Source: an uncultured Methanolobus sp. (lineage in GTDB: Archaea; Halobacteriota; Methanosarcinia; Methanosarcinales; Methanosarcinaceae). From it: a stretch of DNA of 64,000 nt. The position numbers were made by a program, and so were the translations under genes. Shown piece after piece: positions 50,663 to 64,000 of the stretch. The stretch's first letter is position 1. Every line of letters starts with the position of its first letter. Location: the NCBI GenBank assembly GCA_963675495.1, contig OY776215.1, positions 800,001-864,000 of the forward strand. The letters run 5' to 3'. The notes below the pieces were generated by a model. The model was not told where the DNA came from. It saw nothing but the letters and a program-made list of their open reading frames with translations, and ran no database searches.

Positions 50663-50763
50663 TGAATTGAATTAAACTATAAGTATTTACGCTGTGAGCT
50701 GTGAATGACTAAAAATACACTTACCAAATATATTTTACATAATGTTTATTAAAGGTGATTTAA

Positions 50764-51777
50764 ATGGTCGAAGTTGAAAGGGTACGATATTCCGATACTT
50801 CCGAAAGGGAGAAGATACGTGCAATGATCAAGGCACGTAAAGAGAAAGATAAGAACTTAGACGTTGAAAAAGCAAAGGTCCAGTGCCCCGAGTGTGGCAG
50901 CCGCAACCTTGTACAGGACTACGAGAGAGCAGAGCTCGTATGTTCTGACTGTGGACTTGTAGTTGACGCAGAGTTCGTTGATGAAGGACCCGAATGGCGT
51001 GCTTTCGATCATGACCAGAGGATGAAGCGTTCCCGTGTGGGCGCACCAATGACCTACACGATACACGACAAAGGTCTGTCAACTATGATAGACTGGAGGA
51101 ACCGTGATTCATACGGAAAATCTATTTCATCAAAGAACAGGGCCCAGCTTTACAGGCTGAGAAAATGGCAACGTAGGATAAGAGTAAGCAATGCTACGGA
51201 AAGGAACCTTGCGTTCGCATTGTCCGAACTGGACCGTATGGCATCAGCTCTTGGTCTTCCAAGAACTGTTCGTGAGACTGCTGCTGTAGTCTACAGGAAA
51301 GCAGTCGACAAGAACCTCATCCGTGGAAGGAGCATTGAAGGTGTTGCCGCAGCAGCATTGTATGCAGCATGCCGCCAGTGCAGTGTCCCAAGGACACTTG
51401 ATGAGATAGGAGAAGTATCAAGGGTAAGCAGGAAAGAGATCGGAAGGACATACCGTTTCATCTCAAGAGAACTGTCCCTGAAGCTTATGCCAACCTCACC
51501 AATAGACTATGTCCCAAGATTCTGCTCAGGACTTAACCTTAAAGGTGAAGTTCAGTCCAGAGGCGTGGAGATTCTCAGGCAGGCTTCCGAGAAAGAGCTT
51601 ACCAGTGGCCGTGGGCCAACCGGTGTAGCTGCTGCAGCCATCTATATTGCATCCATTCTTTGTGGAGAGCGCCGTACACAGCGTGAGGTTGCTGATGTTG
51701 CCGGTGTGACAGAGGTCACTATCCGTAACAGATACAAAGAGCTTGCAGAAGAGCTTGATATTGAGATCATTCTCTGA
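50764..51777 (+). CDS. tfb: Transcription initiation factor IIB
   Basis: CPECG..C..CG Zn ribbon, GPEWRAF, HDKGL, two cyclin repeats. Confidence 0.97.
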
Positions 51778-51888
51778 GAACGCTGTCAAAATTCTGAAAC
51801 GAAGGAAGACCGTACCACCTCTTCCTTTGTTCCACATACTTTTTTCCAAATCTTTTTTACCATTTAGCCGGATTAACCAGTGTAAACT

Positions 51889-52500
51889 ATGTTAGAACTT
51901 CTGGAAATGCTGACAATAGGATTTGCCATGGGCATGACAGGTGCGCTTGTACCTGGACCAATGCTATTCGCTACGATAGATACGTCCCTGAAGAAAGGCT
52001 GGAAAGCTGGCCCCGAGATATTCATAGGCCACGCAATACTGGAATTTCTGGTCTGCATACTGATAATATTTGGTATCACAGCAGTTAGTGACAACACGGT
52101 CATGACAATATCCATACTCGGAGGAGCCACCCTTATTATGTTCGGCATCCTGACAATGAGAAATGCAAAGGGTGCGGCAGACTCAATGCATGAGCATGGA
52201 AATGCGAGCTCAAATCCAGTGCTTGCCGGAATAATCACATCAGCCTCAAACCCTTATTTCTGGCTCTGGTGGCTAGCTGCAGGAAGTGCGCTCGTACTAC
52301 GAGGACTTGAGATAAGTCTGCTTGCTGCAGCCATGTTCATGATAGGACACTGGTTAGCAGACCTTGGTTATTTCACATTTGTCTCTACATCATTCAGCAA
52401 AGGAAAGAAACTCATGTCCCCAAAAGTTTATGAAAGGGTACTGATGTCTTGTGGTCTGTTCCTTGTCCTGTTCGGGTCATGGTTTATCATAGGTACGTAG
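51889..52500 (+). CDS. LysE family transporter
   Basis: GAL.PGPM, G...GH, SNPYFWLWW, ~6 TM. Confidence 0.85.
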   Translation: MLELLEMLTIGFAMGMTGALVPGPMLFATIDTSLKKGWKAGPEIFIGHAILEFLVCILIIFGITAVSDNTVMTISILGGATLIMFGILTMRNAKGAADSMHEHGNASSNPVLAGIITSASNPYFWLWWLAAGSALVLRGLEISLLAAAMFMIGHWLADLGYFTFVSTSFSKGKKLMSPKVYERVLMSCGLFLVLFGSWFIIGT

Positions 52501-52502
52501 AC

Positions 52503-53504
52503 ATGAAAAAAAATTGTATCAAGGTTTTGAAGAAAGAAGGTGAACCAATACGCAGATCACTGCTGGAAATGGACTTGCTGGATAATTCCGCACGCATTAT
52601 TTCAGAAGGAGATCACCTGTATCTACCCCTTACAGAAGAGCCGCAGGAAAAACAGTTAATGAACCTGTCCGGAAATTTCGAACTCACCGAGCACGAGTTT
52701 GAGGAACAGAAAGGACAATTAAGGTTTGAAGACCTGCTTGATGAAGTACCGCATTTCGAACTAATTGGTGATATCGCACTTGTCGAAGATGATGTATCAG
52801 AGCCTGAAAAGGTAGCTGATGCCATCATGAAAGTGAAGAAGAACGTCAAAACAGTACTTGCCGCCATGAGCCCTGTTGAAGGAGAGTTCAGGACCCGCAG
52901 GTTCAGGGTAGTTGCAGGAGAGGACAGGACCTCAACCACACACAAGGAGTACGGTTGCAGATACTACATCGATCTTGAGAGAGCATACTTCACCCCCCGT
53001 CTGGCAACTGAGCGCTCACGTATCCTCGCACAGATCAGTGAAGGCCAGACCGTGGCAGACATGTTCGCAGGTGTTGGACCTTATAGTATAATGATAGCAA
53101 AAAAAAGCCCCGACATCCGGGTGATCGCCATAGACAAGAACCCCGATGCAGTGGAATTCCTTCGCCGCAACGTAGAACTCAATTCCGCCACCAATGTAGA
53201 AGCAATAGAAGGCGATGCCAACCTCGAGGCAGAAAAGTTTGCCGGAGTCGCCGACCACGTTATCATGAACCTACCCCACAACGCCAATGAGTTCCTTGAC
53301 GCTGCCATGAAATTGTGCGCTCCAAACGGTATCATCCACTATTATGATATCACCCACGAGGACGACCTTTTCGAGAGTTCCCTGAAACTTATCGAGGAGG
53401 CTGCATCCAGGGCAAATCGTACAACCGAGCTAGTAGAATCAAGGGTCGTCCGTTCCTACGCCCCTCACCAATCCAATGTCTGCATAGAAGTAAAAGTGAT
53501 ATAA
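52503..53504 (+). CDS. trm5: tRNA (guanine37-N1)-methyltransferase Trm5 family
   Basis: IGDIA, GEFRTR, HKEYG, YFTPRLATER, DMFAGVGPY, IMNLP. Confidence 0.88.
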   Translation: MKKNCIKVLKKEGEPIRRSLLEMDLLDNSARIISEGDHLYLPLTEEPQEKQLMNLSGNFELTEHEFEEQKGQLRFEDLLDEVPHFELIGDIALVEDDVSEPEKVADAIMKVKKNVKTVLAAMSPVEGEFRTRRFRVVAGEDRTSTTHKEYGCRYYIDLERAYFTPRLATERSRILAQISEGQTVADMFAGVGPYSIMIAKKSPDIRVIAIDKNPDAVEFLRRNVELNSATNVEAIEGDANLEAEKFAGVADHVIMNLPHNANEFLDAAMKLCAPNGIIHYYDITHEDDLFESSLKLIEEAASRANRTTELVESRVVRSYAPHQSNVCIEVKVI

Positions 53505-53522
53505 TCAGGCAGATTAATAAGC

Positions 53523-53535
53523 GAAATGGTTAAAT
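53523..53535 (+). promoter_or_regulatory. BRE/TATA promoter of tRNA-Thr
   Basis: GAAATGGTTAAAT ~33 nt upstream of the mature tRNA 5' end. Confidence 0.5.
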
Positions 53536-53567
53536 CATTACATACAATTATAGTGTCGTCCACACTT

Positions 53568-53639
53568 GCCTCTGTGGCTTAGCGGTATAGCGGCTGATTC
53601 GTAATCAGCAGGCCGAGGGTTCGAATCTCTCCAGGGGCT
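53568..53639 (+). tRNA. tRNA-Thr(CGT)
   Basis: Cloverleaf: GCCTCTG/CAGGGGC acceptor, GCTGA-TTCGTAA-TCAGC anticodon arm (CGT 53600-53602), GAGGG-TTCGAAT-CTCTC T arm. Confidence 0.95.
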
Positions 53640-53640
53640 T
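53624..53640 (+). repeat. attL core (3' end of tRNA-Thr)
   Basis: AATCTCTCCAGGGGCTT, 16/17 identical to 63460-63476. Confidence 0.85.
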
Positions 53641-53648
53641 GACATCAC

Positions 53649-53672
53649 GGGGTTAAAAGCCCCCTTTTTCTT
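53649..53672 (+). terminator. Hairpin plus T-tract downstream of tRNA-Thr
   Basis: GGGGTT-AA-AAGCCCC stem (imperfect) followed by CTTTTTCTT. Confidence 0.5.
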
Positions 53673-53846
53673 ATATTGTAAGTATTATCAGTTCAAATAC
53701 CAATTATAAAAAAACAAAGGATGATTATTGAGAAAATTTTATGAAGGGTAGATTGTATTTTGGTTTGTATATTGTTATAGGCTTTTGGTTGAAATAAAAA
53801 TGTGGGATCATGAGTGATTCCACATTTTGTCCATGTTTTGTTTGTT

Positions 53847-55091
53847 TCAGGAAGAAGATGTTGGTACTGTCAATGGTATCCAGCGTATATCGCAATTTGC
53901 CGCATTTGTTTCTACTTTCCAAACATCATCTTTTCGCACAGGCATGGTAATTGATGCATACTTCATTTTCTTTGTTGGGTAAATACTATCAGCCACCACA
54001 AGTTCCATAGTGGAACCAGTGAAAGTGGAGCCTTCTACATATATGGTTTCTTTGTTCTTTTTAGGCATGTCAGTTGAAGATATATAACAAACAACAAATC
54101 CATCAGTTTCCGCTATATATTGACCACCTGCAACAAAGGAATCTTTGTCCCATTCTCCAAACTCTGGACTTTCGCCCTGTGGACCTTGCTCACCTTGTGG
54201 TCCTTGCTCACCTTGTGGACCTACTGGAATAGCAACTATTTGGTCTTGTAAATCATAAATACTATCCCATATTTCATAAATTGCCTTCCATAAACCACTT
54301 ATTTCTTTATCTGGATCAATGAAGTTGACGACATTGTAATTAATACCTGTATCAACAAATACAGAACTTGGGTAATTATTAATTGTGCCGAATGAATCCG
54401 GTTCTGCTGAAGTGCCAAGCGTGCAACTACTAATTAATATGCCATAATTGTTGATGATACCAGGGCCATAATCTGCATTATTGTTAAAAATGTTGTAATT
54501 TAGAATTGTGCCGGTATTATTTACAATTCCATAAGTATAGACATACATATAATTTGTAAAATTTCCATTGTTTTGAATCAATGTTTCACTAAAAATTGTG
54601 CCGTTGTTATTTAGTGACCCGTTTTCATAGTTATAAAGCATGCCATAGAAGTTAAATTTTTTATTATTGTTTATAATTCCGTAATTATGGAGACTTATTG
54701 TAGGCTCAATGTGTAGGAAATCGTTGTTCTCAAAAACACCAAAATTATAAAATTCACTTGATAAAAGCTCCATAGACCCATTGTTCAAAAATATACCGTG
54801 GTTATTCAGATTACCCACTATCATGAAGTGTCCGTCTGAACTGATTTCGAGCACCCCGTTCGGTTGGATGATAAGGCTACCTCCATTATTTAGTTCAAAC
54901 CGATCACCATGCACTATGAGACTTTCACCATCTTCAATTACAAGTGTGTCACCTGCGTTTATATACAGTTCATCACCAATATTAATTACACCTGGGTTTG
55001 TCAGATTTGTTGCGTTGGCAGTGCCTGCAAAAACAAGCATTAATGCTATTATTATAAAGAATAATCTATCCCTATTCATATTTATCACCAT
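53847..55091 (-). CDS. Secreted Asn/Gly-rich (beta-helix-like) protein with short coiled coil, collagen-like repeat and small C-terminal domain
   Basis: Signal peptide ending ANA; repeated N.G.I.N; IYDLQDQI; GPQGEQGPQGEQGPQGES; YIAETDGFV. Confidence 0.75.
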   Translation of the reverse strand: MVINMNRDRLFFIIIALMLVFAGTANATNLTNPGVINIGDELYINAGDTLVIEDGESLIVHGDRFELNNGGSLIIQPNGVLEISSDGHFMIVGNLNNHGIFLNNGSMELLSSEFYNFGVFENNDFLHIEPTISLHNYGIINNNKKFNFYGMLYNYENGSLNNNGTIFSETLIQNNGNFTNYMYVYTYGIVNNTGTILNYNIFNNNADYGPGIINNYGILISSCTLGTSAEPDSFGTINNYPSSVFVDTGINYNVVNFIDPDKEISGLWKAIYEIWDSIYDLQDQIVAIPVGPQGEQGPQGEQGPQGESPEFGEWDKDSFVAGGQYIAETDGFVVCYISSTDMPKKNKETIYVEGSTFTGSTMELVVADSIYPTKKMKYASITMPVRKDDVWKVETNAANCDIRWIPLTVPTSSS

Positions 55092-55419
55092 TTCATAATT
55101 ATTGAAAAAATATGTAAAAACATGTCCCCCTTAAAAAAATGTCTTTAAGTAAGTATATAAAATTATCCAAATGAACGTGTATTATTAAAAGTTATGAATA
55201 ATTCAAGCTCTGTAGAAAAACTACTTCTATTTTATTTTAGTATCACTATTTAAAAAGGATGACTCCCCTAAGGAATACTTATCACTAAAAGCACAAAGGG
55301 GATGAGTGTGTTTCGTCTAGTCAGTACTTAAATAATTGATTCATAAAAATCGCATTCAAAATCCTTCCTTCCTAAAAATAAAAAAAGATGCATTGCAAAT
55401 CAACGCATCAAAAACAAAC

Positions 55420-55668
55420 TTATCTAGAATTCTCACTTTTCAGCGATTCAAGTATTGAAAGAAGCTTAACACTCAACACCTCAAGATCCGAACCAAAGAG
55501 AGTGAAGTTCTCCCATCTGTTTGATTTCTTGTTGAACTTGGAGAACTGAAGCCATTTCACGCTTGAACCATCATCCTTTTTCTTTTCAGAGATTGAGACT
55601 GACGTATTTGCCAGGTGGATCTTTTCGCCTATCTGTCTAATTCCATATTCATTATATTCATTTGACAT
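55420..55668 (-). CDS. Small protein, possibly PC4-like ssDNA-binding
   Basis: Beta-strand pattern VSISEK..WLQFSKF.K....WENFTL followed by a C-terminal helix; fold is a guess. Confidence 0.55.
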   Translation of the reverse strand: MSNEYNEYGIRQIGEKIHLANTSVSISEKKKDDGSSVKWLQFSKFNKKSNRWENFTLFGSDLEVLSVKLLSILESLKSENSR

Positions 55669-55824
55669 TTTGAATTACCAATTAAACATTGAAATATCAA
55701 TACAAGAACATTTATAATTTCAATAAAAAGAGGACGCAAAAGTAATACAAAAACAATACTGTTTTTCACACTTGTCTACGATGCAGTAAATAATAGTCTG
55801 TTTCTTGGGTTTGGTTAGGATGTT

Positions 55825-56130
55825 CCTCACTTGCGCCCGCAGTGTTCGTCACATCATTTTTAGAGGGGAGTTTGGTATTTGACGGACAGAATTACTGCGC
55901 AACTCTGCCCTTTAAAGATGGTTGGTGCGTCAATGCGCCCTTTGGTCGCATTCACACTGAAAATTAGATTACTTGCAACTTACACTGACAGTTTGCAGGA
56001 CTTGCAGTCCCGGGGAGCAGAGTTTGTCGGCTCCCCTTCGTTCTAGTCTTGCTTTTGTTACGGGATTCTGCGAGGTGTAGCTAACTGGAAATATGCTCCG
56101 CATACTGTGGGGTTTCTGCGAAACCCCACT
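55825..56130. other. GC-enriched hairpin cluster (candidate single-strand origin or structured RNA)
   Basis: Stems 55852-72/55901-20, 55995-56002/56045-52, 56012-18/56030-36, and perfect GTGGGGTTTC-TGC-GAAACCCCAC at 56107-56129. Confidence 0.55.
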
Positions 56131-56131
56131 T

Positions 56132-56398
56132 TTACATATTGAAAACTTGAAAATGCCGGAAAGCATTTATGTTGTTTTCAAAGTGCTCACATGCTATGTC
56201 ATATGATTTCCAGGAACATGCATTCCCTAGAATTATATTCTTCAGTACTATATCGGGATGTAGATCACAGGATTGTGTTTCAATGAAAGATTGAACATTA
56301 TATGATGTCAATGCACCTGTTCTTTGTTCTTTACGATATTGATTGATCCTTTTGTATAGCTCTTGTTCACTTCTTATGAGAGTTTTGTCTTCATTCAT
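56132..56398 (-). CDS. Hypothetical protein (element-encoded)
   Basis: 88-aa ATG ORF co-oriented with the element; AT-rich TATA-like sequence upstream. Confidence 0.55.
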   Translation of the reverse strand: MNEDKTLIRSEQELYKRINQYRKEQRTGALTSYNVQSFIETQSCDLHPDIVLKNIILGNACSWKSYDIACEHFENNINAFRHFQVFNM

Positions 56399-56524
56399 GC
56401 AAAGTAGTATGTATCCTGTATATATTCTGATGAGCCAAGTGAGGTGAAAGTAATTTGTTGAACCTCTGTTTCATGTAAAAAGAATTTATGCAATATTTGG
56501 GTTAAAAATCACGGTAAAATCGGG

Positions 56525-56608
56525 TTGCATGTCAACTGTGGCACACACGCCTTAATCGTGTACCTAAGGGAACATTGGAAAAAAGCCACGGGCGCCGCGA
56601 AGCGGCGC
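56525..56608 (+). repeat. 84-bp dispersed repeat, copy A, ending in GCGCCGC-GAA-GCGGCGC hairpin
   Basis: Ungapped match to 63847-63930, 61/84 identical by hand count. Confidence 0.75.
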
Positions 56609-56799
56609 GAGTGCTGGGTAGGTTGGATATTTTGAAGGATAAGAGGATTTAGTAAAAACAGTAGCAAGAGATTTTTGTACAAAATAATTAATAGTACACA
56701 AGAAAAACCATTTTCCACTAGAAATGATACTGCACCTGTTCTAGCTGAAATATCTAAAAGAAATATCTTTTTTGTATATTGATTAATGTGCTACTATTC

Positions 56800-58530
56800 T
56801 TACCGTATATCAACTTTAATTCCTAATAATTTATATTCATCTGATTTATCAGTTAAAGTTAATACTTTGTGTTTTGTAATCATTTCATCAAATTCGCTTT
56901 GATTCATGTGTTTTCTAATTTCATCAAGTTGATTTTGATTCACAGTTGCAATGTATTGCTTTTTAGAATTTGAAAATTTATCGTTTATGACCTTGAACAT
57001 GTCAGCTATTTGCCTCTCGTCAATATCCGAAAAAAGTCTACTGTCATGAAAAACAAAATCTATTTTATGTTTGTATCCTTCAAATAATATTGTCAAGTCG
57101 TAGCAAAAAATCTTGACATGATTTATACCATCAGAAGCATCTGATTCAATTTTTGCATCAATATCAAATCGCAATTGATTTGTTCCGTTATTGGGATCAA
57201 TTGTAATGCCAGCTACACTATCTGGATAGAATGTTTTCGCAAGACTCCTAAAAAAGTTTCTTAATATGACAATATCATCTCCAATATCTTCTAGATACTT
57301 GTCGGTAGTTTCAGCAGATTCCATAAACTCTTTTTTAATTTCTCTTTCTTTGGAGCTGCACTCCGCTTGTAGCAATTGATATTTTTTAATGTTTTCTCTT
57401 TCTAGCTCATATTCTGCTTTCTTACTATTAAGACTAACAAAAAGATCAAGTGCTTGATGGTCACCTAGATATTTCATAATACTATCGAGTTCTTTTTGCA
57501 ACTTCTCTATTTTCTTTTCTTTAGTTTGTATTTCTAATTTCAATCTGTTTTGCTGCTCACTTAATCTTCTTTTTCGATTTGATATCAACTTTTCATAGAA
57601 TTTTTCTAATTCGTCTAACTCTTTGACTAACATTTCGGAGAATTGTATTTTTGATTCTTGATAAACATTTAATATACTATTCTTGGACAAATCAGGTGAG
57701 AAATTTAAACTATTATTTACTTGTTCTAGATTATTTTGTAAAAGTATAATCTTATTATTTAGTACAAATAGTTCTTTTTCTACTTTATCTGCCTTCAGTT
57801 GGATATCTCTATAATCTTCTGCCACTTCAAATGTTTTTAAATTATCTTCCAATTGATTGATTCGGTCTTCTAATTCTACTAGTGTCAAAGCAGCATCTTT
57901 ATTCCCGGTAAAGAAATCTTTTAATAATGAATCATTTTTAAAAGTTTTCTTCAAATTATCCACAGAGTCTAATTCTTTTTTAAGCTCTGCTTTTTTTTGT
58001 ATCAGAGAAACATCTAATCCTAGTAAAAACGAATTGTACAGTAATGTCTGGTATTGTTTTCCAGTCTTTGCCGGTTGATCAAAATTTACATAAGATTCTT
58101 TTTTCGGTCGAACAAAAAAAGGAATTAAGCTTCTGAAAGAAAGATAAGAAATATTTTCAGGAATAACAAAACACAAAGAATCCATCTTCTTGTTAAATTT
58201 TAGAACCGACATTAATTCATCATTTAACACTATATCCTTTGGATTATTTGTAGTTCTTTTAACTGTATACGTTTCATTGCCTACCTTAAAATCAATGAAG
58301 AATTCCCAATCTTCTAATTTTTCACAAAAATCATTGTATCCTTTTTCAGCAGCTCCAAAACAAAAATGAATTATGCGGACTAAAAGAGATTTTCCTACTC
58401 CATTATAGGTTTTTCCTTTGTCATTGGATTCTGGATCATCCTGTTCTGCGACAATAAAGCTAGGTCCAGTTACATTAAATTCAACTGTCCTGAAGCTTTC
58501 TTTGTTCGAATAAACTTTCAACAAATGCAT
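56800..58530 (-). CDS. lmuB: Lamassu LmuB / ABC-3C SMC-like ATPase (DUF2326-type)
   Basis: Walker A YNGVGKS, central coiled coil, signature-like ESDASDG, Walker B FVFHDS, D-loop DIDERQ, QYIATVN. Confidence 0.8.
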   Translation of the reverse strand: MHLLKVYSNKESFRTVEFNVTGPSFIVAEQDDPESNDKGKTYNGVGKSLLVRIIHFCFGAAEKGYNDFCEKLEDWEFFIDFKVGNETYTVKRTTNNPKDIVLNDELMSVLKFNKKMDSLCFVIPENISYLSFRSLIPFFVRPKKESYVNFDQPAKTGKQYQTLLYNSFLLGLDVSLIQKKAELKKELDSVDNLKKTFKNDSLLKDFFTGNKDAALTLVELEDRINQLEDNLKTFEVAEDYRDIQLKADKVEKELFVLNNKIILLQNNLEQVNNSLNFSPDLSKNSILNVYQESKIQFSEMLVKELDELEKFYEKLISNRKRRLSEQQNRLKLEIQTKEKKIEKLQKELDSIMKYLGDHQALDLFVSLNSKKAEYELERENIKKYQLLQAECSSKEREIKKEFMESAETTDKYLEDIGDDIVILRNFFRSLAKTFYPDSVAGITIDPNNGTNQLRFDIDAKIESDASDGINHVKIFCYDLTILFEGYKHKIDFVFHDSRLFSDIDERQIADMFKVINDKFSNSKKQYIATVNQNQLDEIRKHMNQSEFDEMITKHKVLTLTDKSDEYKLLGIKVDIR

Positions 58531-58763
58531 TTTTTTATTACACCGTCCTGCTCAATAACGGCCCCTATGGAATAGAGAAAAACGATTGTGAGTAAAAAAC
58601 TATCAAAATTATGCTTCGCATGATATATTTTATTTTGATAATCATTCTGATATTTATCCCATAAATTATCAATAGGTTTTGATGATTCTAATTGAGTCAA
58701 AATGTAGCTGCCAAAACCCAGCAAAGATTCTGAAAAATTAGTGTGCTTAGTTGGAAGGATCAT
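58518..58763 (-). CDS. lmuC: Lamassu LmuC / ABC-3C middle component
   Basis: MILPTKH...SESLLG.G..IL ... FLYSIGAV, typical of small ABC-3C middle components; overlaps both neighbours. Confidence 0.75.
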   Translation of the reverse strand: MILPTKHTNFSESLLGFGSYILTQLESSKPIDNLWDKYQNDYQNKIYHAKHNFDSFLLTIVFLYSIGAVIEQDGVIKKCIC

Positions 58764-59671
58764 TACATTTCTCCTTTGAGAGGTTCTTCAAATATATCAC
58801 ATGTTTCAAAATACTTTGCCATAATTACAATAACTGATATTTCATATATTTGTTCTGCTTTTGGACTTGCACATTTAACAATTGCCCAAAATAATTCGTC
58901 CCCACAACTATTCTTTTTTTCTTGGATGTAGATTTCATTCATTTTATCCCGCAAAGAATCTGCAAGGAAATCACTATTATTTTTCAAATAATTTTCTAAA
59001 GAATGCAACTGAATGCATCCATTGTTAAGGAATCTAGACACATATTTAGATAGATTGTTAAACTCTATTTTTTCATCCCAATCTGGCAATTTTACTTCAG
59101 GCTTATCATCTTTTGGTAAAGGTAATGTCATTATATATGAAATTATTTCGCGGAGTATTGAGTAATCTAATTGTTTTATCTTAGCAGGATCAGGAATAAA
59201 TCCTGCTATCATTCCTATCTGATCATCAGCAAGCTCAAAAAGCATATTTTCAAGGTCTTTTGCAGTCATAAATCCTGCATAATCAAGATTATGTGATGTC
59301 CTTATGTCTTGAATTATTTTTTCAGAGTCAGGATTTACACCTTTGTACTTGTCATTGACTACAAAATAAAATTGTTTTACTGGTCCCCATTGTTTATTTA
59401 AACCTGCGAAATCTGTTTTTAGTTTATTGACAATGTCTGTGTAGGATTTTCTTATATCCTCAGGAGCAAATACCTGAAAATATATGCATTTAGATTTTAT
59501 GTAACCATCATTTTTTCTGTCACCGATGTTTCCCCATGGCTTTATCTGCTGAAAATCTGGTTCTGTATAATTCATAATTGCACTGAATATATCTTCAAAT
59601 ATTTGTCCATCAGCTTTTAAGATTTTGTTTTGAAACAAATATCTAGTTAATGTTCTTTCTTGAACGTCCAT
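58763..59671 (-). CDS. lmuA: Lamassu LmuA / ABC-3C effector with restriction-endonuclease-like N-terminus
   Basis: FEDIF, GDRKNDGY..YFQVFAPE nuclease-like motif; KIEFNNL and KYFETCDIFE ABC-3C C-terminal motifs. Confidence 0.75.
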   Translation of the reverse strand: MDVQERTLTRYLFQNKILKADGQIFEDIFSAIMNYTEPDFQQIKPWGNIGDRKNDGYIKSKCIYFQVFAPEDIRKSYTDIVNKLKTDFAGLNKQWGPVKQFYFVVNDKYKGVNPDSEKIIQDIRTSHNLDYAGFMTAKDLENMLFELADDQIGMIAGFIPDPAKIKQLDYSILREIISYIMTLPLPKDDKPEVKLPDWDEKIEFNNLSKYVSRFLNNGCIQLHSLENYLKNNSDFLADSLRDKMNEIYIQEKKNSCGDELFWAIVKCASPKAEQIYEISVIVIMAKYFETCDIFEEPLKGEM

Positions 59672-59961
59672 TCTATTGCACCTATGCTGAATTATGGAAC
59701 CGTGTAATCTGTATTATGCAGTTTACTTAAAAACAATACACTATTATCAAATATACTTCTATATAATAAATAATGATAATTTCATTTTTAAGCTGCCGAC
59801 ACAAATTTTATCTGAAGGTTTATACTATGAACTTAAACTTAAAATTTGCGATTTCATTCATAAGCACATCAAAATGGCAAGAGTTTATAATAATGCAATT
59901 TAACTATGAATATTTACAATTATGTGTTCTATATATCTTATTTTTTGATAGCTCACGCTCT

Positions 59962-61407
59962 TCAGATTACTCTGCTATACCTCATAGTATTGTAATTTGA
60001 CCTGACTGCAATACCACGCCAAATTCCAAGTTCTTTGAACTCTTTCGCTAGCTGTTTAGCCTGTCTGTAAGTATCAACTACAATAGGTTCTTGGTCAGGA
60101 GTGTGGCGAGACTTAATTAATTTCAGGTTCTTTTTACGTTCCTTGAAAGGACGGATTACTCCGGAATCTACGAAGACGTGGCCGAATATCTTTTTGAAGC
60201 CTATGTTAAAGTCTGAACAGAAGTTGATGAGAGGATCTTTTGCTTTTTCCCATAGGCGTTTAGTTTTGAAGAATACCTTTGTGCAGTGTTCGCGGGCTGT
60301 GTCCAGGGTACCTTCGGATTTCCAGTAATTGATGTAGCGCCATAGGGAACGCTCGGGGATTTCTGTTTGTTCCTGGATGTCTCGGAAGTCTGCGCATCCT
60401 TCAGATTGAAGGGCAATGAATGCCAGGGCTTTAATGGCCTGCATGTTCTTGCCAAAGTCGATGTTCTCATCTTGAGAAGATTGATTATTATAGTTCCATT
60501 TTGGGAGATCATAGCGATATTCAAAGACCTTTTCAGCATCGAAGTAATTGTCTGATACGTATTCTATGGGAGAGATGAAGTTAAGAAGGGAGAACAGGAG
60601 TTTATCGAGGTCTTTTTTCAGGGAGAGGAATTCATTGATAGAGGGATTTTGTTTTGAATCGGATTTGAGGAAGACCTCAAGTTTTGGGTGTCTTAGGGGA
60701 TCTTCTGGTCTGCGGTCCAGGAAGTTTTTTATACGGTAGGATTTGACGCTGTGTTGATATTCGGTTTTTATGTTGCAGGCGGAGAAGTCGGGATTATCCA
60801 GTTTGTACATGTCGTATTTACCGGACCTTAGATTTTTGACAAGTTTTGAATCTCCACGCATGGAGGATTCATATTCTATTGCCTGGAGCATTGTTACCAG
60901 GTCATGTTCGTGTCGTTCATGACAACGTATGTGTCTGGCCATCTGGTATATTGTGGACCTTGAACGGTCTATCATGTGGCGGAAGCGTGAAGCTCCCAGA
61001 AAGTCCATGAATTCAAAGATGATGTCAAAGTGTTCGTCAAGGTCGATATAAGAGGACTGGATATGAATTTGAGTTCCTATTGATGGAAGGTTAAGGATCT
61101 TTCCTGATTTTGTTTTTGTGCCTGCTCCAAATAGGGGTTTTATGGTGTAGGTGCATTTTGATGCTCCTTCTTTATCGGTCCATTGGAGCATGTACTCAAA
61201 GGCGAGTTTCTTTGTTTTGGGATTGTAGAGGCCGCCTTGTTTGGGCCAGAACTTGAAGTTACGGTCACCTATCTTGATATGATGGTTATAGCTATCAGTT
61301 ACATTGTTAGAGAAGTAACTGACAACTGTATAATAGAAGTCCAGGTCTGTTATATGTAAATAACAGCCGAACTCATGGGTGACGGGTTCCGGGAACTTAT
61401 GAACCAT
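59962..61407 (-). CDS. Putative replication protein with C-terminal wHTH (recalls betapleolipovirus/haloarchaeal plasmid Rep-like family)
   Basis: N-terminal PVTHEF..YL....DFYY, KSY...DPLRHPKLEV, HTH ADFRDIQEQTEIPERSLWRYI; family link is from memory of motifs. Confidence 0.6.
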   Translation of the reverse strand: MVHKFPEPVTHEFGCYLHITDLDFYYTVVSYFSNNVTDSYNHHIKIGDRNFKFWPKQGGLYNPKTKKLAFEYMLQWTDKEGASKCTYTIKPLFGAGTKTKSGKILNLPSIGTQIHIQSSYIDLDEHFDIIFEFMDFLGASRFRHMIDRSRSTIYQMARHIRCHERHEHDLVTMLQAIEYESSMRGDSKLVKNLRSGKYDMYKLDNPDFSACNIKTEYQHSVKSYRIKNFLDRRPEDPLRHPKLEVFLKSDSKQNPSINEFLSLKKDLDKLLFSLLNFISPIEYVSDNYFDAEKVFEYRYDLPKWNYNNQSSQDENIDFGKNMQAIKALAFIALQSEGCADFRDIQEQTEIPERSLWRYINYWKSEGTLDTAREHCTKVFFKTKRLWEKAKDPLINFCSDFNIGFKKIFGHVFVDSGVIRPFKERKKNLKLIKSRHTPDQEPIVVDTYRQAKQLAKEFKELGIWRGIAVRSNYNTMRYSRVI

Positions 61408-61444
61408 GTGTTTGCAAGAGCTTATTTTGTCTCACAACTTTGCA

Positions 61445-61648
61445 TTAAAAACTATTATTTTTGTTCGGTTCATAGGGTTGAATTATGGCATGTAATCCAT
61501 TTTCATCCATGTATAATTCGTATTTTACGCAGTCAATTACTAGACTCCCATCAGGATCAACAATACCCAAAGCAAAAGCAACTTTTTGGGGTAATGTTAT
61601 GTTCAGACGGCCACCGTTTTCCTTGATACGGTATCCTGTTTTTCCCAT
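61445..61648 (-). CDS. AbrB/SpoVT-like DNA-binding protein
   Basis: RIKENGGRLNITLPQKVAFALGI swapped-hairpin pattern. Confidence 0.65.
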   Translation of the reverse strand: MGKTGYRIKENGGRLNITLPQKVAFALGIVDPDGSLVIDCVKYELYMDENGLHAIIQPYEPNKNNSF

Positions 61649-61863
61649 TAGATCAAACCCCTTGACCTTTTGAGCTCATCCAGCGTTATTTCCCCACGTC
61701 TTACAGGTTCAAGAAGTTCATTCAACTTTTCTTTTGCGAGCTTATCGATTTTAAGCATCACTTTTTTAGAGGGAGACAAATGGTTTAAAAATTCATCATC
61801 AAAAGTACTATCGTCAATAATAGATTGCTTTAAAGATTTTAATTGTGTATTTATACGAAACAT
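61648..61863 (-). CDS. Small hypothetical protein, translationally coupled to the AbrB-like gene
   Basis: GGAG-ATG at 61863 (alternative GTG at 61893); TAATG overlap with the next gene. Confidence 0.6.
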   Translation of the reverse strand: MFRINTQLKSLKQSIIDDSTFDDEFLNHLSPSKKVMLKIDKLAKEKLNELLEPVRRGEITLDELKRSRGLI

Positions 61864-62155
61864 CTCCAGAGAGTTTCGTAAAAAAGGATGCACAGTTGTG
61901 CACCTTCTGGAGTTTTCTTTTATTCTATTGCGGCTTCTCTTCTTTTTGGCTATCTTTATTATCGGCTTTTTATTCTAGGCTTTATTATTGGCATTTTCTT
62001 TTTGGCTTTTCATTTTGGGATTTTTACCCTTTCTTGTCTTCGCCTTATTTTTTGCCTTTCTTATTTTGCCTTTTTCTCTCGCCTTTCTTATATTAGCCTT
62101 CTATTTTTTGCCTTTGGTTCTTATTCTTCATATCCTTTGAAGATAACCTTTTTTA
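61864..62155 (-). ncRNA. Candidate structured leader, ncRNA or ssDNA element: GGC/GCC ladder plus 3' hairpin
   Basis: Six GGC + GGG / CCC + six GCC at 12-16 nt spacing, A-rich on the minus strand; TATA upstream; hairpin plus T6 downstream. Confidence 0.45.
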
Positions 62156-62178
62156 CAAGAGTACCTTGAACCTATAGA

Positions 62179-62190
62179 TATATAAACTTT
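62179..62190 (-). promoter_or_regulatory. BRE/TATA box for the leader and rep operon
   Basis: Minus strand AAAGTTTATATA. Confidence 0.55.
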
Positions 62191-62246
62191 TCTAATTTTC
62201 ATACGAAGAGTGCTATTATGTCTCGCAAACCGTGCTATTTATCATC

Positions 62247-63419
62247 TTAGATAGTCATATTTCGCAAAGCCTCATTGACCTTTGCGTTAACCAAGTCATC
62301 TAAGTTTGCGTCAAGAATCTTGGATATTGCATCTTCTATTGGTTGTGATTTCTCTTCTATTTCAAGTGCAGTTTTTAGTGTTAACACTGAACCACAATTG
62401 TAGCAGAACATGTTGTTTGGAGTGTTAAGTGTCTTGCACCTGGGGCACTTGTGCACTTTTGACTTATTCTCTTCTTCTTCGATTTCAACACCGTTTGCCC
62501 TCAGTACAGCATCATCGACATCACGTCCGGATAAGTGAACATATACTGATGGAACATCTGAACCTTGTATCCATCCAAAATAGGCATTCATCTGTGCCTC
62601 TGTTAAGTGATTAGCCATAAATGTAGCTCGGCTATGCCTGAATAAGTGAGCGTGAATTCTTTTGTTTACACCTGCATTTTTGGCTATCTTTTTGAGCTGC
62701 TTAGTAATAGCGGCATAACCTATCATGGTAGAAGTGTTAGCTTTATTTCTATCAAAGTTCCACCATAATGGTGCATCTGGATTATCCCTTTCAGGATGCT
62801 GTTCAAGCCAAGACATTAAAAGGCGAACAGAATAAAAAAGAAGTACAGTACGATGTCCTGTCTTACCATCAACCCTTATTTTCATGCCTTCGTCAGCGTG
62901 CATTATATGTTTTATTTTTAAATTACCAATTTCACCAATCCGACAACCAGAATCCCATAAAATAGCTATAATAGCTTGATCCCTTATGCTGCGTGTTGAT
63001 TCAATCATTTTATTGACATCATCTTCTGTTAGCAACTCTTCGGGTAACTTGCGCCCCTTGCTCTTCTTTGTTGCCTTGAAGAATGCAATGATTTCAGGCT
63101 CTTTTCCACCATTCAACCATCGATAAAATTTCTTTAATGTTACTGCATAGTCGTGCCGCGTATCTTCACTTTCTGTTCTATCCCTAACGGCAATAAGCAC
63201 ATCTTCTATGTCAGTCTTTGTTGCTTCATCCAATGGCTTGTCATTCATCATAAGAGCAATTTGCTTCAAGGTGCTAACATATTTCATTTTCCTGAAATCC
63301 GTCATACCTTCAATATCACACTGTCTTACAAACTTCTTTATATGCTGAATATTGGAATCGGATATTTTCCCATCAAGCCCAGAAATCCTTTTTTTGAGAT
63401 TGTGATTGTAAAGTGCCAT
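62247..63419 (-). CDS. int: Tyrosine recombinase/integrase with C-terminal Zn ribbon
   Basis: SGCRIGE (R), DGKTG (K), HLFRHSRAT (HxxR), FGW, SVYVHLS (Y); CPRC..CYNC; adjacent to attR. Confidence 0.93.
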   Translation of the reverse strand: MALYNHNLKKRISGLDGKISDSNIQHIKKFVRQCDIEGMTDFRKMKYVSTLKQIALMMNDKPLDEATKTDIEDVLIAVRDRTESEDTRHDYAVTLKKFYRWLNGGKEPEIIAFFKATKKSKGRKLPEELLTEDDVNKMIESTRSIRDQAIIAILWDSGCRIGEIGNLKIKHIMHADEGMKIRVDGKTGHRTVLLFYSVRLLMSWLEQHPERDNPDAPLWWNFDRNKANTSTMIGYAAITKQLKKIAKNAGVNKRIHAHLFRHSRATFMANHLTEAQMNAYFGWIQGSDVPSVYVHLSGRDVDDAVLRANGVEIEEEENKSKVHKCPRCKTLNTPNNMFCYNCGSVLTLKTALEIEEKSQPIEDAISKILDANLDDLVNAKVNEALRNMTI

Positions 63420-63459
63420 AGTACATAATTGGATTAAGGGCTTATAACCTTTAGGTAAA

Positions 63460-63476
63460 AATCCCTCCAGGGGCTT
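63460..63476 (+). repeat. attR core
   Basis: AATCCCTCCAGGGGCTT duplicates the tRNA-Thr 3' end. Confidence 0.85.
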
Positions 63477-63580
63477 ACTTCTTTTTCGGGTACAAAACTC
63501 TTTAATTCTGATCTTACAATATTTTCACCCATATATTGTAAAATATACATTATCAGGCAGAGCTCATCAGCCTCACGGTT

Positions 63581-63739
63581 TTAATCTTCAGATAAGATCC
63601 ACGTAGCTGCCTCAATAAGATCCATATCAGAACCATTAACTAAGAATTTGTCTTCAGAAACACGTTCAACGAGATAAGATCCAAAAAAGTGCTTCTCACC
63701 AAATGGAAGTTTGTTCAATTCGCTTATTACTTTATCCAT
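63581..63739 (-). CDS. Small hypothetical protein (52 aa), probably leaderless
   Basis: MDKVISELNKLPFGEKHFFGSYLVERVSEDKFLVNGSDMDLIEAATWILSED; TTATAA ~25 nt upstream; below the ORF-track cutoff. Confidence 0.5.
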   Translation of the reverse strand: MDKVISELNKLPFGEKHFFGSYLVERVSEDKFLVNGSDMDLIEAATWILSED

Positions 63740-63846
63740 AAAAGTAATATGTATCAAACTTTATAACTATTCGTATGCCGCTTGTACGATAATTATCTTT
63801 TATTTCAACTGGGACAAACTATACAAAAAACAAGCCATAAATCATA

Positions 63847-63930
63847 TTGCAGACCAAAACTAGTACACACGCTTTAATCATTTACCTAAGAAAAACTAGA
63901 AATAAAACCATGGGCGTCACGAAGCGGCAC
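63847..63930 (+). repeat. 84-bp dispersed repeat, copy B (degenerate hairpin)
   Basis: Shares ACACACGC.TTAATC...TACCTAAG and GGGCG...CGAAGCGGC with 56525-56608. Confidence 0.75.
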
Positions 63931-64000
63931 AACTTTCTGATTGAAGACCAATATAAACATAGCTCAAACAAACATCAATCAGATTCATTCCACCTCTGCC

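Follow-up and report, generated by a model that had tools for sequence, protein, structure and literature searches.

Between the integrase gene and the replication operon of a mobile element in an uncultured Methanolobus sp., GGC triplets recur at short intervals up to a central point, beyond which GCC triplets take their place. What is this ladder, and does it act as RNA, as DNA, or not at all? We addressed the question in the 64,000-nt stretch of contig OY776215.1 in which the ladder had been noticed; this whole stretch is called the window here, and all positions are counted from its first base.

On the + strand, GGC occurs at 61932, 61948, 61964, 61978, 61990, and 62004, followed by a central GGG (62017) and CCC (62027) and then by GCC at 62042, 62054, 62068, 62081, 62096, and 62110; on recount, all positions given in the original prediction were matched to the base. 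The arms are fully segregated, the left one being free of GCC and the right one of GGC, and successive rungs lie 16, 16, 14, 12, 14, and 13 nt apart on the left and 15, 12, 14, 13, 15, and 14 nt apart on the right. Eight of these 12 spacings are not multiples of 3, as had been claimed of most of them. The 206 nt from 61920 to 62125 comprise 120 T, 41 C, 25 G, and 20 A on the + strand (78% pyrimidine), and 21 of the 25 G fall within triplets, which bears out the claim that almost every G does. Not one of 20,000 dinucleotide-preserving shuffles of these 206 nt gave at least six GGC and at least six GCC in full segregation, so the pattern is not one that shuffled sequences often produce; 54 of the 20,000 reached the triplet counts alone, without segregation. 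When the whole genome (2,874,008 bases, 2.87 Mb) was scanned on both strands, the two arms were the only chains of at least six GGC or GCC triplets at 10- to 18-nt spacing. The ladder exists as described, and chance is a very poor account of it.

Tandem Repeats Finder describes each arm as a period-14 array with super-periods of 26 and 27. Compared with each other as reverse complements, the arms are identical at 35 of 91 positions, versus 63 of 91 in direct orientation. The reverse-complementary arms of an ordinary inverted repeat or cruciform are thus not found here, and only the triplets are complementary, as originally stated: the arms are direct repeats of one T-rich unit, in which GGC and GCC differ by one transversion. 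Apart from the tRNA-Thr, Rfam gave no gathering-score match in 50000-64000, and at E values up to 10 no match in 61000-63000 overlapped the ladder. No printed account of the ladder was found in Rfam, in the sections of PMC13107129 consulted, or in literature searches on other aspects of the element. The genome of the window holds no second copy of the region. Contigs derived from the reads of four sequencing runs of one study list no variants of it, three runs being identical to the window, and possibly its own source, and the fourth giving only short fragments. None of the sequencing runs listed for this DNA is registered as RNA.

The ladder belongs to a 9.8-kb element integrated in a tRNA-Thr gene, with all element genes on the minus strand (Table 1). 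The right att core lies 40 nt past the integrase start, and similarity to related elements stops at 63475-63476. The gene originally called Rep encodes a member of the Rep-Arvir family of rolling-circle initiators (PF25227): its DUF7845 domain spans residues 6 to 292 and scores 97.2 bits against a Pfam cut-off of 27, and a six-frame genome search recovered the same gene. The family (PF25227/DUF7845), characterized in PMC13107129, is marked by a catalytic YxxK motif and a central MarR-like winged helix-turn-helix (wHTH) domain and makes single-stranded intermediates. Candidate YxxK motifs occur in our protein at residues 61, 87, and 224 (the last being Y-R-I-K). The first operon gene encodes a small protein, p71, with no family in Pfam or PHROG. 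Its AlphaFold2 model is all helical (mean pLDDT, 76.9) and had no Foldseek match in the PDB at an E value of 0.001 or less; a wide VIA-align search, with a best Z of 4.0, was uninformative, and the ESM Atlas gave no usable match. In the AbrB-like protein, a looped-hinge-helix motif was recognized by eye. A reading of the ladder as integrase arm sites was rejected because int itself separates the ladder from the att core, which is about 1.35 kb distant.

Table 1. Features of the element and of its control region (positions in the window)
Feature	Positions	Strand	Basis
att core, left end of element	53624..53640	+	3' end of tRNA-Thr(CGU)
Rep-Arvir (DUF7845) rolling-circle replication initiator, 481 aa	59962..61407	-	PF25227, E 1.7e-27
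AbrB/MazE-like small protein, 67 aa	61445..61648	-	weak PF04014 match, E 0.017, under family cut-off
p71, first operon gene, small helical protein, predicted start	61648..61863	-	open reading frame
Hairpin/palindrome H2, with GGAG and ATG (61863) in the loop and codons 2-3 in the stem	61855..61879	-	inverted repeat
CCUUUUUUAC: T6 run (61880-61885) and 3' strand of terminal stem	61878..61887	-	5/5 loci
Conserved hairpin H1, immediately ahead of T6	61887..61904	-	terminator scan, 5/5 loci
Ladder arm, six GGC on + (six GCC in minus-strand RNA; 3' arm)	61932..62006	-	consensus TTTATTATTGGCTT
Central mini-hairpin, GGG - 7 nt - CCC	62017..62029	-	pairing probability 0.66-0.71
Ladder arm, six GCC on + (six GGC in minus-strand RNA; 5' arm)	62042..62112	-	consensus TTTTGCCTTTCTTA
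Predicted 5' stem-loop of leader	62116..62148	-	minimum-energy folds; less clear in other loci
Predicted first transcript bases GUAAAAAAGG, 5' strand of terminal stem	62147..62156	-	motif in 5/5 loci
Archaeal-type promoter: TATA box TTTATATA and purine-rich BRE-like stretch just upstream	62179..62192	-	sequence
Tyrosine integrase, C-terminal zinc ribbon	62247..63419	-	PF00589, E 1.8e-18
Second att core, right end of element	63460..63476	+	16/17 identical to left core

Comparison of five homologous loci (that in the window, G033, G125, G001, and G006) separated a constant frame from a variable middle: a promoter-like box, a 10-bp end-to-end stem, a hairpin, and T6 are kept in all five. The minus-strand TATA box of the original prediction was found, with TTTATATA running from 62186 to 62179, and the ladder does sit, as proposed, between a predicted minus-strand promoter and the regulator-rep operon. 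The integrase stop codon is 55 nt upstream of this promoter. Between the box and the predicted start G lie 22 nt, and an A/T-rich box precedes the equivalent G by 19 to 23 nt in all five loci. In a Methanolobus species studied by dRNA-seq, BRE/TATA elements lie about 19 to 22 nt from start sites, and 24% of mRNAs have a 5' untranslated region of more than 150 nt (PMC5378194), which makes a leader of this length unremarkable for the genus. The start motif G(C/U)AAAAAAG(G/A) occurs in five of five loci and can pair with the complement at the far end of the leader (62147-62156 with 61878-61887): over the 10 pairs and five loci, 49 of 50 cells are paired, and one of the pairs is C-G in three loci, U-A in one, and U.G in one.

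At that far end, the 7-pair stem of H1 (61904-61887) is followed by CTTTTTT, a terminator-like combination of hairpin and T run. It is the sole such site found by a scan of 61400-62500 and lies 16 nt upstream of the first operon gene. Two of the five counted pairs of H1 are changed on both sides, and there is one G.U in the sense orientation; this wobble and that of the terminal stem both pair in the sense orientation only. RNAalifold also gave a helix for H2, of 8 pairs, 2 with changes on both sides; since its GGAG abuts the ATG with zero spacing, GGAG may not be a working ribosome-binding site. In the flanks, 98.7% of 75 cells are paired and three pairs are changed on both sides, values that 3 to 25 of 500 shuffles reach, depending on the measure, for only five related sequences. 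When the structure is scored as a whole, its percentage paired is reached by 3 of 500 shuffles, and partners slid out of register are 47 to 63% paired. This covariation comprises few events in five related sequences, and related sequences can outscore shuffles without any structure.

T runs are unevenly distributed between the strands. On the sense strand, no run of at least five T occurs over the 130 to 359 nt before the conserved T6 in any of the five loci, T6 being the only such run in the leader, and the opposite strand carries 3 to 10 of them. Because archaeal termination uses U-tracts (PMC8716108), this asymmetry fits transcription in the minus direction; the A-richness of the sense strand could mean no more than that a transcribed spacer avoids T runs. 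Together, these features suggest that the ladder is the variable middle of an A-rich, untranslated minus-strand leader of about 278 nt that runs from the predicted promoter to the hairpin and T6. Upstream open reading frames were considered and set aside, there being, by eye, two of 12 codons in the leader of the window and no ATG in that of G033, and no conservation. By eye, each of the five loci has an A/T-rich octamer that precedes the left copy of GCAAAAAAGG by 25 to 28 nt. A + strand antisense promoter at this octamer, inside the start of p71, was rejected: the octamer is made of p71 Ile, Asn, and Lys codons and is therefore indistinguishable from coding constraint, and the two wobble pairs fit the sense RNA only.

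Whether a rod is predicted depends on the energies applied. With RNA parameters, the minimum-energy fold of either strand is a rung-by-rung rod in which the six GGC/GCC rungs have pairing probabilities of 0.94 to 1.00. The sense RNA reaches -26.5 kcal/mol, compared with -8.8 +/- 3.1 kcal/mol for 200 mononucleotide shuffles, none of them as low, and the fold of 251 nt has a z of -2.66 against dinucleotide shuffles. With DNA parameters, the energy is -5.8 kcal/mol (z, -0.04; equaled or bettered by 105 of 200 shuffles) and, for the + strand, -3.3 kcal/mol (z, +0.88; 160 of 200 at least as stable). The rod is predicted with RNA energies and not with DNA energies, and of the original proposal of a rod in RNA or single-stranded DNA the RNA half stands, as a predicted fold, and the DNA half is not supported. 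Helices of 3 bp between loops of about 10 by 10 nt are at the limit of what nearest-neighbor energy models can be trusted with.

We tentatively prefer to read the tract as a structured leader or attenuator RNA that may help control the replication genes. In this scenario, transcription would start near 62156, from the archaeal promoter (TATA, 62179-62186) just downstream of the integrase gene, and the minus-strand transcript would cross the ladder and reach the conserved hairpin and T6 (61904-61880). Between its conserved ends the leader is nearly all A, with U scarce, so that the triplets are almost the sole residues able to pair; they would clamp one half of the leader to the other, giving a long rod in which 3- to 5-bp rungs alternate with A-rich bubbles. 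The rod would bring the conserved first ten bases (GYAAAAAAGG) beside their conserved complement (CCUUUUUURC), and this end pairing would close the leader next to both the terminator-like hairpin and the start-codon hairpin. The closed leader could then set how much transcription and translation pass into the replication operon, resulting in control of copy number or dormancy, much as the attenuating leaders of bacterial rolling-circle plasmids act. What the sequence establishes is the pattern with its improbability and non-coding nature, the conserved promoter-like box, end-to-end stem, hairpin, and T6, and a stability predicted for RNA only; that the minus-strand RNA is made, folds as a rod in the cell, and has any regulatory role is inferred. 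A bolder version, which we think improbable, is that the ladder represents a new kind of RNA in archaeal mobile elements: an end-paired rod of about 280 nt with 3- to 4-bp G/C staples, both released free at the hairpin and U6 and read through as an mRNA leader, whose A-rich bubbles or evenly spaced rungs would gather a multimeric binder, be it p71, the AbrB-like protein, or an Lsm-type ring, with occupancy switching the rolling-circle operon.

How far do the relatives agree? A GGC-to-GCC ladder is present in three of the five loci (the window, G033, and G125) and absent from two, so that the lack of the pattern in related elements, which had been named as evidence against it, applies in part. 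The three ladders come from two genera and their spacers cannot be aligned, which limits comparison to architecture. At this level, polarity, a central 3- to 4-bp stem with a 7-nt loop, and strand asymmetry recur in all three, in support of the original interpretation; triplet number and spacing do not (6/6 rungs at about 14 nt in the window, 5/5 at about 28 nt in G033, and about 11/3 at about 14 nt in G125). G033 reads GGC, three GGGC, GGC and then GCC, three GCCC, GCC, in matched order and with spacings matched across the arms (27/26, 28/28, 28/28, and 40/44 nt). G125 is lopsided, with about 11 GGC versus 3 GCC, which means either that equal arms are not required or that this copy is decaying; p71 is kept there, no AbrB-like gene or Rep adjoins, and int is a remnant. 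In G006 the leader is 130 nt long and lacks a ladder, and in G001 five to six copies of a different 10-nt direct repeat stand in place of one. As int, p71, the AbrB-like gene, and Rep are full-length in both, the ladder is dispensable for this type of element.

Furthermore, the ladder is not tied to Rep, and there are loci with H1 and the p71 gene but no Rep-Arvir in the vicinity. Within about 7 kb around the 10 other Rep-Arvir loci of the family, we found no chain of GGC or GCC at 9 to 18 nt and no strongly T-skewed 150-nt tract. A metagenome scan with Rep gave four loci: in the two with upstream DNA (L070 and L071), the gene context is different and there is no ladder, and the other two contain only the C-terminal part of rep. 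Viral contigs matched neither Rep nor the flank motif. A flank-motif scan of genome contigs returned two records, Methanolobus vulcani PL 12/M and a Methanococcoides MAG, which are possibly among the five loci already and are not counted as new. In all, the homologue, metagenome, viral, and flank-motif searches found the ladder in only three genomes.

The alternative that survives best is that the array works as double-stranded DNA, as an operator or iterons, which we consider unlikely but credible. Here, a small DNA binder encoded by the element (p71, the AbrB-like protein, and the wHTH domain of Rep being candidates) would nucleate at the GGG-N7-CCC dyad and spread outward head-to-tail, with the half-sites left of the center oriented opposite to those right of it, and would block the operon promoter, causing repression in the integrated state or incompatibility. 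A position shortly after the start site is a common one for archaeal repressors, and the array begins no more than 45 bp downstream of the predicted start. The central half-sites are 10 bp apart, center to center, in the window and in G033, and a GG(G/C)-N6-7-(G/C)CC dyad occurs in four of five loci, three times in G001, whose repeats are plainly direct, without fold-back symmetry, and iteron-like. The type of array also tracks the p71/AbrB-like module rather than int and Rep: G001, with its different repeats, has the int (90%) and Rep (90%) most similar to those of the window but the most distant p71 (72%) and AbrB-like protein (69%), and G033, with its ladder, has the closest p71 (85%). Even the lopsided ladder of G125 poses no problem for an operator. 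However, the common motif is merely 3 to 4 bp, and the irregular 12- to 16-bp spacing is off the helical phase and unlike known iterons or cooperative operators; the fixed length, single orientation, and helical phase of iterons are lacking in the ladder, with the G001 repeats coming closer. Moreover, an operator leaves unexplained why both arms keep T on one and the same strand despite the inversion of the triplets, and why rung order and spacing are matched in G033.

The second alternative, to which we give little credence, is that the array is neutral filler, prone to slippage, within a spacer under no demand other than freedom from T runs on its sense strand. One unit would have changed from GGC to GCC and both variants expanded, the symmetry being accidental and inherited by a few relatives. 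The direct identity of the arms (63 of 91, with one transversion between their units) is what such a history predicts, as are the variation among loci in copy number, period, and spacer composition, the identical units within arms (a sign of recent expansion), the two intact elements without a ladder, and the confinement of the ladder to three genomes. Against neutrality, polarity, the 7-nt loop, and strand asymmetry have been kept in three loci of two genera whose spacers no longer align, the G033 arms have altered in concert (GGGC with GCCC) with order and spacing matched, and in the window no GCC has strayed into the GGC arm or vice versa.

Replication origins are less probable still. As a single-strand origin, which we regard as very improbable, the tract would either fold in the displaced strand or serve the host primase as a pyrimidine-rich landing site from which to start the lagging strand; archaeal primases favor pyrimidine-rich templates, and the + strand is 78% pyrimidine. 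The element encodes an initiator whose family makes single-stranded intermediates (PMC13107129), and the terms "sso" and "single-strand origin" do not occur in that paper, which describes no such origin for the family. Single-strand origins lie in non-coding DNA, act on one strand only, differ even between related plasmids, and can be dispensed with (PMC9569500), a nature that matches the patchy distribution of the ladder. Nevertheless, the stable fold of one DNA strand that defines them is not seen, stability with DNA parameters (z, -0.04 and +0.88) being no better than that of shuffles; such a tract is missing from the 10 other Rep-Arvir loci of the family, one ladder locus (G125) has no adjoining Rep, and the conserved flanks resemble transcription signals.

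A double-strand origin, with Rep-binding repeats around a nick hairpin (the central mini-hairpin or H1), is barely plausible. There is precedent in rolling-circle plasmids of the pMV158 type, some of which carry an origin hairpin and direct repeats upstream of the cop-rep operon, and an upstream origin has been suggested for thermococcal Rep-Arvir plasmids (PMC13107129). However, a block of about 100 nt with a GC hairpin at 56520-56640 is a much better candidate for the replication origin than the ladder: it is present at 14 of 14 other Rep-bearing loci with 74 to 96% identity, always downstream of rep and in constant orientation to it, and is absent from the ladder locus without Rep. Most Rep-Arvir loci, in turn, lack a ladder, and H1 and p71 are also present without Rep. 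The weakest alternative, that protein is encoded by the 93-aa frame of the + strand (61888-62169) or by some other frame of the ladder, can safely be dismissed. Three + strand frames are open across the ladder because A is rare (20 A in 206 nt), but the repeat units are mostly not multiples of 3 in length, the translations of the five loci match over the conserved flank alone (best E, 8e-7 over 24 residues; all E above 0.002 outside it), upholding the non-coding nature originally claimed, the 93-aa frame has no Pfam family, and a conserved minus-strand "HPFL" stretch is in frame with p71 in some loci only (by eye).

Rep-Arvir initiators were recognized as late as 2026. To our knowledge, control of their expression has been described for one haloarchaeal virus only, and their origins are undefined outside Halobacteria. 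This locus offers a compact control region of a methanogen Rep-Arvir element, with a predicted promoter, a putatively closed leader, a terminator-like hairpin, and small regulators. Its design principle is unusual, a predicted RNA stripped of nearly all pairing potential save that of about twelve G/C triplets. Should the rod prove true, the leader would be a clean natural case of minimal stapling in a long leader and a possible handle for regulated Methanolobus and Methanococcoides vectors; if it is false, the region still marks a small exchangeable module, leader plus p71, moving between elements.

Several known systems resemble parts of this region. In pT181-type plasmids, whose Rep_trans initiators are bacterial structural relatives of Rep-Arvir, repC has an attenuating leader. 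As proposed for our element, a long untranslated leader precedes a rolling-circle initiator operon, with a hairpin and U-run right ahead of the first start codon and copy-number control as the presumed purpose. The differences are that short antisense RNAs trigger the terminator in pT181; that our host is an archaeon, in which termination has no need of a hairpin; and that pT181 is not known to have anything like the GC-stapled A-rich rod. Plasmids of the pMV158 type carry iterons (the "bind" locus) and a CopG operator upstream of the cop-rep operon, and thus likewise place tandem short repeats beside a hairpin, upstream of a small regulator and rep; their iterons are of fixed length, in phase, and in one orientation, unlike a ladder with 12- to 16-bp spacing, a 3- to 4-bp motif, and a flip in polarity. 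The sponge RNAs CsrB and RsmZ present many short repeated motifs in hairpin loops to a known protein. Our RNA would similarly repeat a G-rich motif of 3 nt a dozen times, at 12- to 16-nt spacing, but its copies would pair with each other instead of lying in protein-bound hairpin loops.

Single-strand origins share with the ladder its non-coding, strand-specific, fold-back-shaped, variable, and dispensable character (PMC9569500), but the known ones are well-paired, imperfect DNA palindromes, whereas the ladder has no predicted stability as DNA. The Methanosarcina plasmid pC2A, a rolling-circle replicon from the same archaeal family as our host, also has long repeats between its recombinase gene, ssrA, and repA, and these can be deleted without loss of replication (PMC9569500); its Rep is of another family (HUH). 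The virus SNJ2 has a Rep of the same family and the same order of integrase gene, small genes, and rep, as well as a conserved hairpin element downstream of rep (PMC13107129), to which the 56520-56640 block is the candidate counterpart in our element. In SNJ2, however, the operon start site is inside int, and, with attP downstream of int, excision is needed before the operon can form (PMC13107129), whereas in our element int adjoins the operon even while integrated, with att across int, and the operon has a separate predicted promoter and a ladder leader of its own.

Our analysis confirmed the ladder of GGC and GCC triplets at 61920-62125, with every triplet at the position originally described, and placed it far from chance. 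The partner triplet is missing from both arms (no GCC in the GGC arm and no GGC in the GCC arm), 21 of the 25 G residues lie inside triplets, and T makes up 120 of the 206 bases. The idea that shuffled sequences might often reproduce such a pattern found no support, as none of 20,000 dinucleotide-preserving shuffles gave at least six GGC and at least six GCC in full segregation, and chains of at least six GGC or GCC at 10- to 18-nt spacing occur, on both strands of the 2.87-Mb genome, solely in these two adjacent arms. Nor is the ladder an ordinary inverted repeat, as had been pointed out: the arms are identical at 35/91 positions when compared as reverse complements and at 63/91 as direct repeats, so that both arms repeat a single T-rich unit in direct orientation and are not mutual reverse complements. 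Each arm is a period-14 array with a super-period of 26/27 nt (Tandem Repeats Finder), and the core GGC and core GCC are one transversion apart, each being the reverse complement of the other. The ladder may have originated as a tandem array of one unit in which a single G-to-C change created a self-complementary partner, followed by two-sided expansion. From one sequencing run (X4) of the study that covers this DNA, very short contigs numbering in the hundreds fell on 61400-62400; word depth was very high there, and many variants showed 90-99% likeness.

Features of the ladder-bearing element and its surroundings (window positions)
Feature	Position	Strand	Remarks
tRNA-Thr(CGU)	53568-53639		
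Mobile element, 9.8 kb	53624-63476		within tRNA 3' end
17-nt core, left copy	53624-53640		
17-nt core, right copy	63460-63476		16/17 identical; 40 nt past integrase start
414-aa protein	53847-55091	-	
Conserved block, ~100 nt, non-coding	56520-56640	+	perfect GC hairpin (7-bp stem, GAA loop)
Three-gene ABC-3C defence-type cargo	56800-59671	-	DUF2326 ATPase, MC6 middle component, CTD10 effector-type domain
DUF7845 protein (Rep-Arvir), 481 aa	59962-61407	-	97 bits vs cut-off of 27
AbrB/MazE-like protein, 67 aa	61445-61648	-	weak Pfam match below cut-off
p71, 71-aa helical protein	61648-61863	-	no known family
Inverted repeat	61855-61879		GGAG and ATG in loop
Hairpin before T6	61904-61887		
GGC (six)	61932, 61948, 61964, 61978, 61990, 62004	+	
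Ladder centre	62017 (GGG), 62027 (CCC)	+	GGG-ATTTTTA-CCC
GCC (six)	62042, 62054, 62068, 62081, 62096, 62110	+	
TATA-like box	62186-62179	-	TTTATATA; 22 nt ahead of G62156
Tyrosine integrase	62247-63419	-	
Degenerate copy of conserved block	63865-63928		78% over 64 nt

Every gene of the ladder neighbourhood lies on the minus strand, in the order integrase (int), ladder region, p71, AbrB/MazE-like protein and DUF7845 protein (Rep), the Rep-Arvir proteins being rolling-circle initiators and distant structural relatives of bacterial Rep_trans (PMC13107129). Homology with related elements ends at the right core; those of two other genomes (G033 and G006) adjoin the same tRNA gene, and at a third locus (G125) the tRNA region is matched at two sites ~10 kb apart that flank the ladder. 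The ABC-3C cargo separates rep from the conserved block, and the stretch from rep to the left end also has a few small genes; the system recurs in the element of genome G001 (77% DNA identity), not in G033 or G006. The 414-aa protein carries a hydrophobic segment at its N terminus, along with Asn/Gly-rich repeats and a short collagen-like run, GPQGEQ, to which its weak PHROG matches to tail-fibre proteins are restricted. Possibly it acts as a spike or other surface protein, in which case the element would be a small provirus and not a plasmid. Just outside the right core, DNA at 63480-64000 and beyond is related to other Rep-Arvir elements, includes the degenerate block copy and probably represents what is left of an earlier element integrated at the same tRNA.

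We used Rep, p71 and PF25227 as queries, first against 101 and later against 177 genomes of the family, and recovered 15 Rep-Arvir genes in 13 of the 177. The p71 type and the conserved flanks are common to five loci, namely, those of the window, G033, G006 and G001 (same genus) and G125 (another genus), and a genome-contig scan places relatives in Methanolobus and Methanococcoides. In window orientation, the window carries six GGC, the centre and six GCC at ~14-nt spacing; G033 carries GGC, three GGGC and GGC, a GGC-7nt-GCC centre, and GCC, three GCCC and GCC, with a period of ~28 nt and spacings matched between sides (27/26, 28/28, 28/28, and 40/44); and G125 carries 10 GGC units, a GGCC-7nt-GGCC centre and three GCC units. 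All three ladders keep the triplet polarity, the T-rich strand, the 7-nt central loop and the lack of partner triplets within an arm. In the comparison originally proposed, polarity thus persists while the spacers diverge to the point of being unalignable (T/C-rich in the window, T/G-rich in G033 and G125), whereas triplet number and spacing proved variable.

Two of the five loci lack the pattern: G006 has a short region with no repeats, and G001 (L044/L076) has five to six copies of a 10-nt direct repeat plus three GGG-6nt-GCC. In both, int, p71, AbrB-like and Rep genes are all full-length; elements of this type can thus do without the ladder. The G001 repeat shows alternating spacings of ~21 and ~40 nt; relative to the window, int and Rep are 90% identical, and the divergent segment, from the p71 N terminus through the promoter (61802-62244), looks like a module exchange. 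At the G125 locus, p71 is present with no AbrB-like or Rep gene beside it, and int is a remnant. The ladder is also missing from the other 10 Rep-Arvir loci retrieved (each with ~7 kb on both sides), from two metagenome loci covering DNA upstream of rep and from the viral contigs searched; it is rare, known from only three genomes.

The minus-strand TATA box of the original prediction has a counterpart at all five loci, where an A/T-rich TATA-like box lies 19-23 nt 5' of the G opening the minus-strand motif G(C/U)AAAAAAG(G/A). In a Methanolobus species, differential RNA sequencing placed BRE/TATA elements ~19-22 nt from start sites, and 24% of mRNAs had 5' untranslated regions longer than 150 nt (PMC5378194). 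At the far end of the region, all five loci have the hairpin followed by CCTTTTTT(A/G)C; this hairpin and its T run (T6) form the sole terminator-like site detected in a scan of 61400-62500. The first 10 bases of the predicted transcript can pair with the 10 bases holding T6, and 49 of 50 cells are paired across the five loci. At pair 2 of this terminal stem, three loci have C-G, the window has U-A and G006 has U.G; in the hairpin, both partners have changed at two pairs, and one pair is G.U. Neither wobble would pair except in the minus-strand (sense) RNA. For the structure as a whole, the observed percentage of pairing was reached by 3 of 500 shuffles and falls to 47-63% when the partners are slid. 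For five related sequences, such conserved pairing of the flanks is suggestive, not proof. From the start motif to T6, runs of at least five T are absent from the sense strand at every locus and number 3-10 per locus on the opposite strand. Because archaeal termination depends on U-tracts (PMC8716108), any spacer transcribed in the minus direction must show such a bias; the asymmetry needs no further explanation, yet it tells which strand matters.

Under RNA energy parameters, both strands have the rung-by-rung ladder as their minimum-energy fold, in keeping with the proposed RNA rod. Pairing probabilities are 0.94-1.00 for the six GGC/GCC rungs and 0.66-0.71 for the central one, and the sense-strand energy is -26.5 kcal/mol versus -8.8 +/- 3.1 for mononucleotide shuffles (0/200 as low); over 251 nt, dinucleotide shuffles gave z = -2.66 (sense) and -3.40 (antisense), although three-pair helices between ~10x10-nt loops are near the limit of the energy model's reliability. 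G033 has a like predicted fold, as does G125 with its three rungs, and the end-to-end stem closes the predicted sense fold in four of the five loci. The window's sense RNA would be rich in A and poor in U (148 A and 39 U of 278), leaving the G/C triplets as nearly the sole pairable residues apart from the designed stems; a sequence made to impose a single long-range fold would look like this.

We tentatively favor, at somewhat under an even chance, the hypothesis that the ladder is the variable body of a structured leader, a predicted ~278-nt untranslated minus-strand RNA, of the p71-AbrB-like-Rep operon, and possibly also of a terminated small RNA. In this scenario, the triplets act as staples that zip the A-rich leader into a rod, which would let the conserved ends pair across ~260 nt and set the hairpin with its U6 and the start-codon hairpin into a defined junction controlling entry into the replication genes. 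Selection would favor staples, as so long an A-rich insert would otherwise hold the ends apart, and on this view the short G006 leader would need none. What the analysis establishes is the triplet pattern, the extent to which it is kept and the fold prediction; the existence of the RNA, its folding into this shape and its regulatory role are inferred.

Alternatively, and with lower probability, the region may be a double-stranded operator array: it sits just past the start site, has a 10-bp dyad at its centre, is replaced by plain direct repeats in G001, and is of a type that tracks the p71/AbrB-like module and not int/Rep. However, the motif would be 3 bp long, the spacing is irregular, and the T-rich strand stays put while the triplets invert. 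Neutral slippage repeats, which would account for the patchy distribution and the lopsided G125 array, are less probable still, given that in G033 the GGGC/GCCC change affects both arms in concert and the spacings match. There is only a slim chance of a single-strand origin, which would suit the biology of rolling-circle replicons; its distribution speaks against it, as do DNA energies, under which the ladder has z = -0.04 and +0.88. This lack of stability, which leaves the single-stranded DNA version of the rod without support, tells against both a cruciform and a single-strand origin formed by folding.

A double-strand origin at the ladder is nearly excluded. In the SNJ2 virus, the origin is a conserved hairpin downstream of rep (PMC13107129), and its natural counterpart here is the block at 56520-56640, likewise downstream of rep, which makes the ladder unlikely in that role. 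This block occurs at all 14 other Rep-bearing loci fetched from the family (74-96% identity), always downstream of rep and in constant orientation to it, 1.6-3.4 kb away where the distance was worked out; it is missing from the ladder locus that lacks Rep, and Rfam has no match to the block. We regard the block as a candidate for either a double-strand origin (nick hairpin) or an RNA gene. The 2026 Rep-Arvir paper reports no such conserved element outside Halobacteria (PMC13107129), and the block may therefore itself be new. A coding origin of the ladder can be set aside as practically excluded.

As to the start-codon hairpin of the favored leader, the inverted repeat at 61855-61879 is common to the five loci. 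GGAG (61864-61867) abuts the p71 ATG (61863) with zero spacing and is the only Shine-Dalgarno-like motif, and p71 residues 1 to ~25 vary and are predicted with low confidence, so that p71 may in truth start elsewhere. Distant p71 homologs (52-55% identical) occur at three loci, L045, L061 and L062 (G000:C1:2352056-2352241), one of which belongs to the window's own genome. These have no Rep-Arvir gene alongside, keep a GTGCA-type hairpin directly 5' of the start codon and have a divergent upstream gene that by eye resembles a wHTH regulator, so that p71 and its hairpin form a module of their own.

We know of no described element of such architecture, going by Rfam, which has no match at the ladder, and by the accessible text of the Rep-Arvir paper, which makes no mention of such a region (PMC13107129). 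In kind, it belongs with the known regulatory leaders or repeat regions that lie ahead of rolling-circle rep operons; what is new is its modeled build, in which G/C staples would hold together an A-rich rod closed by its own ends.
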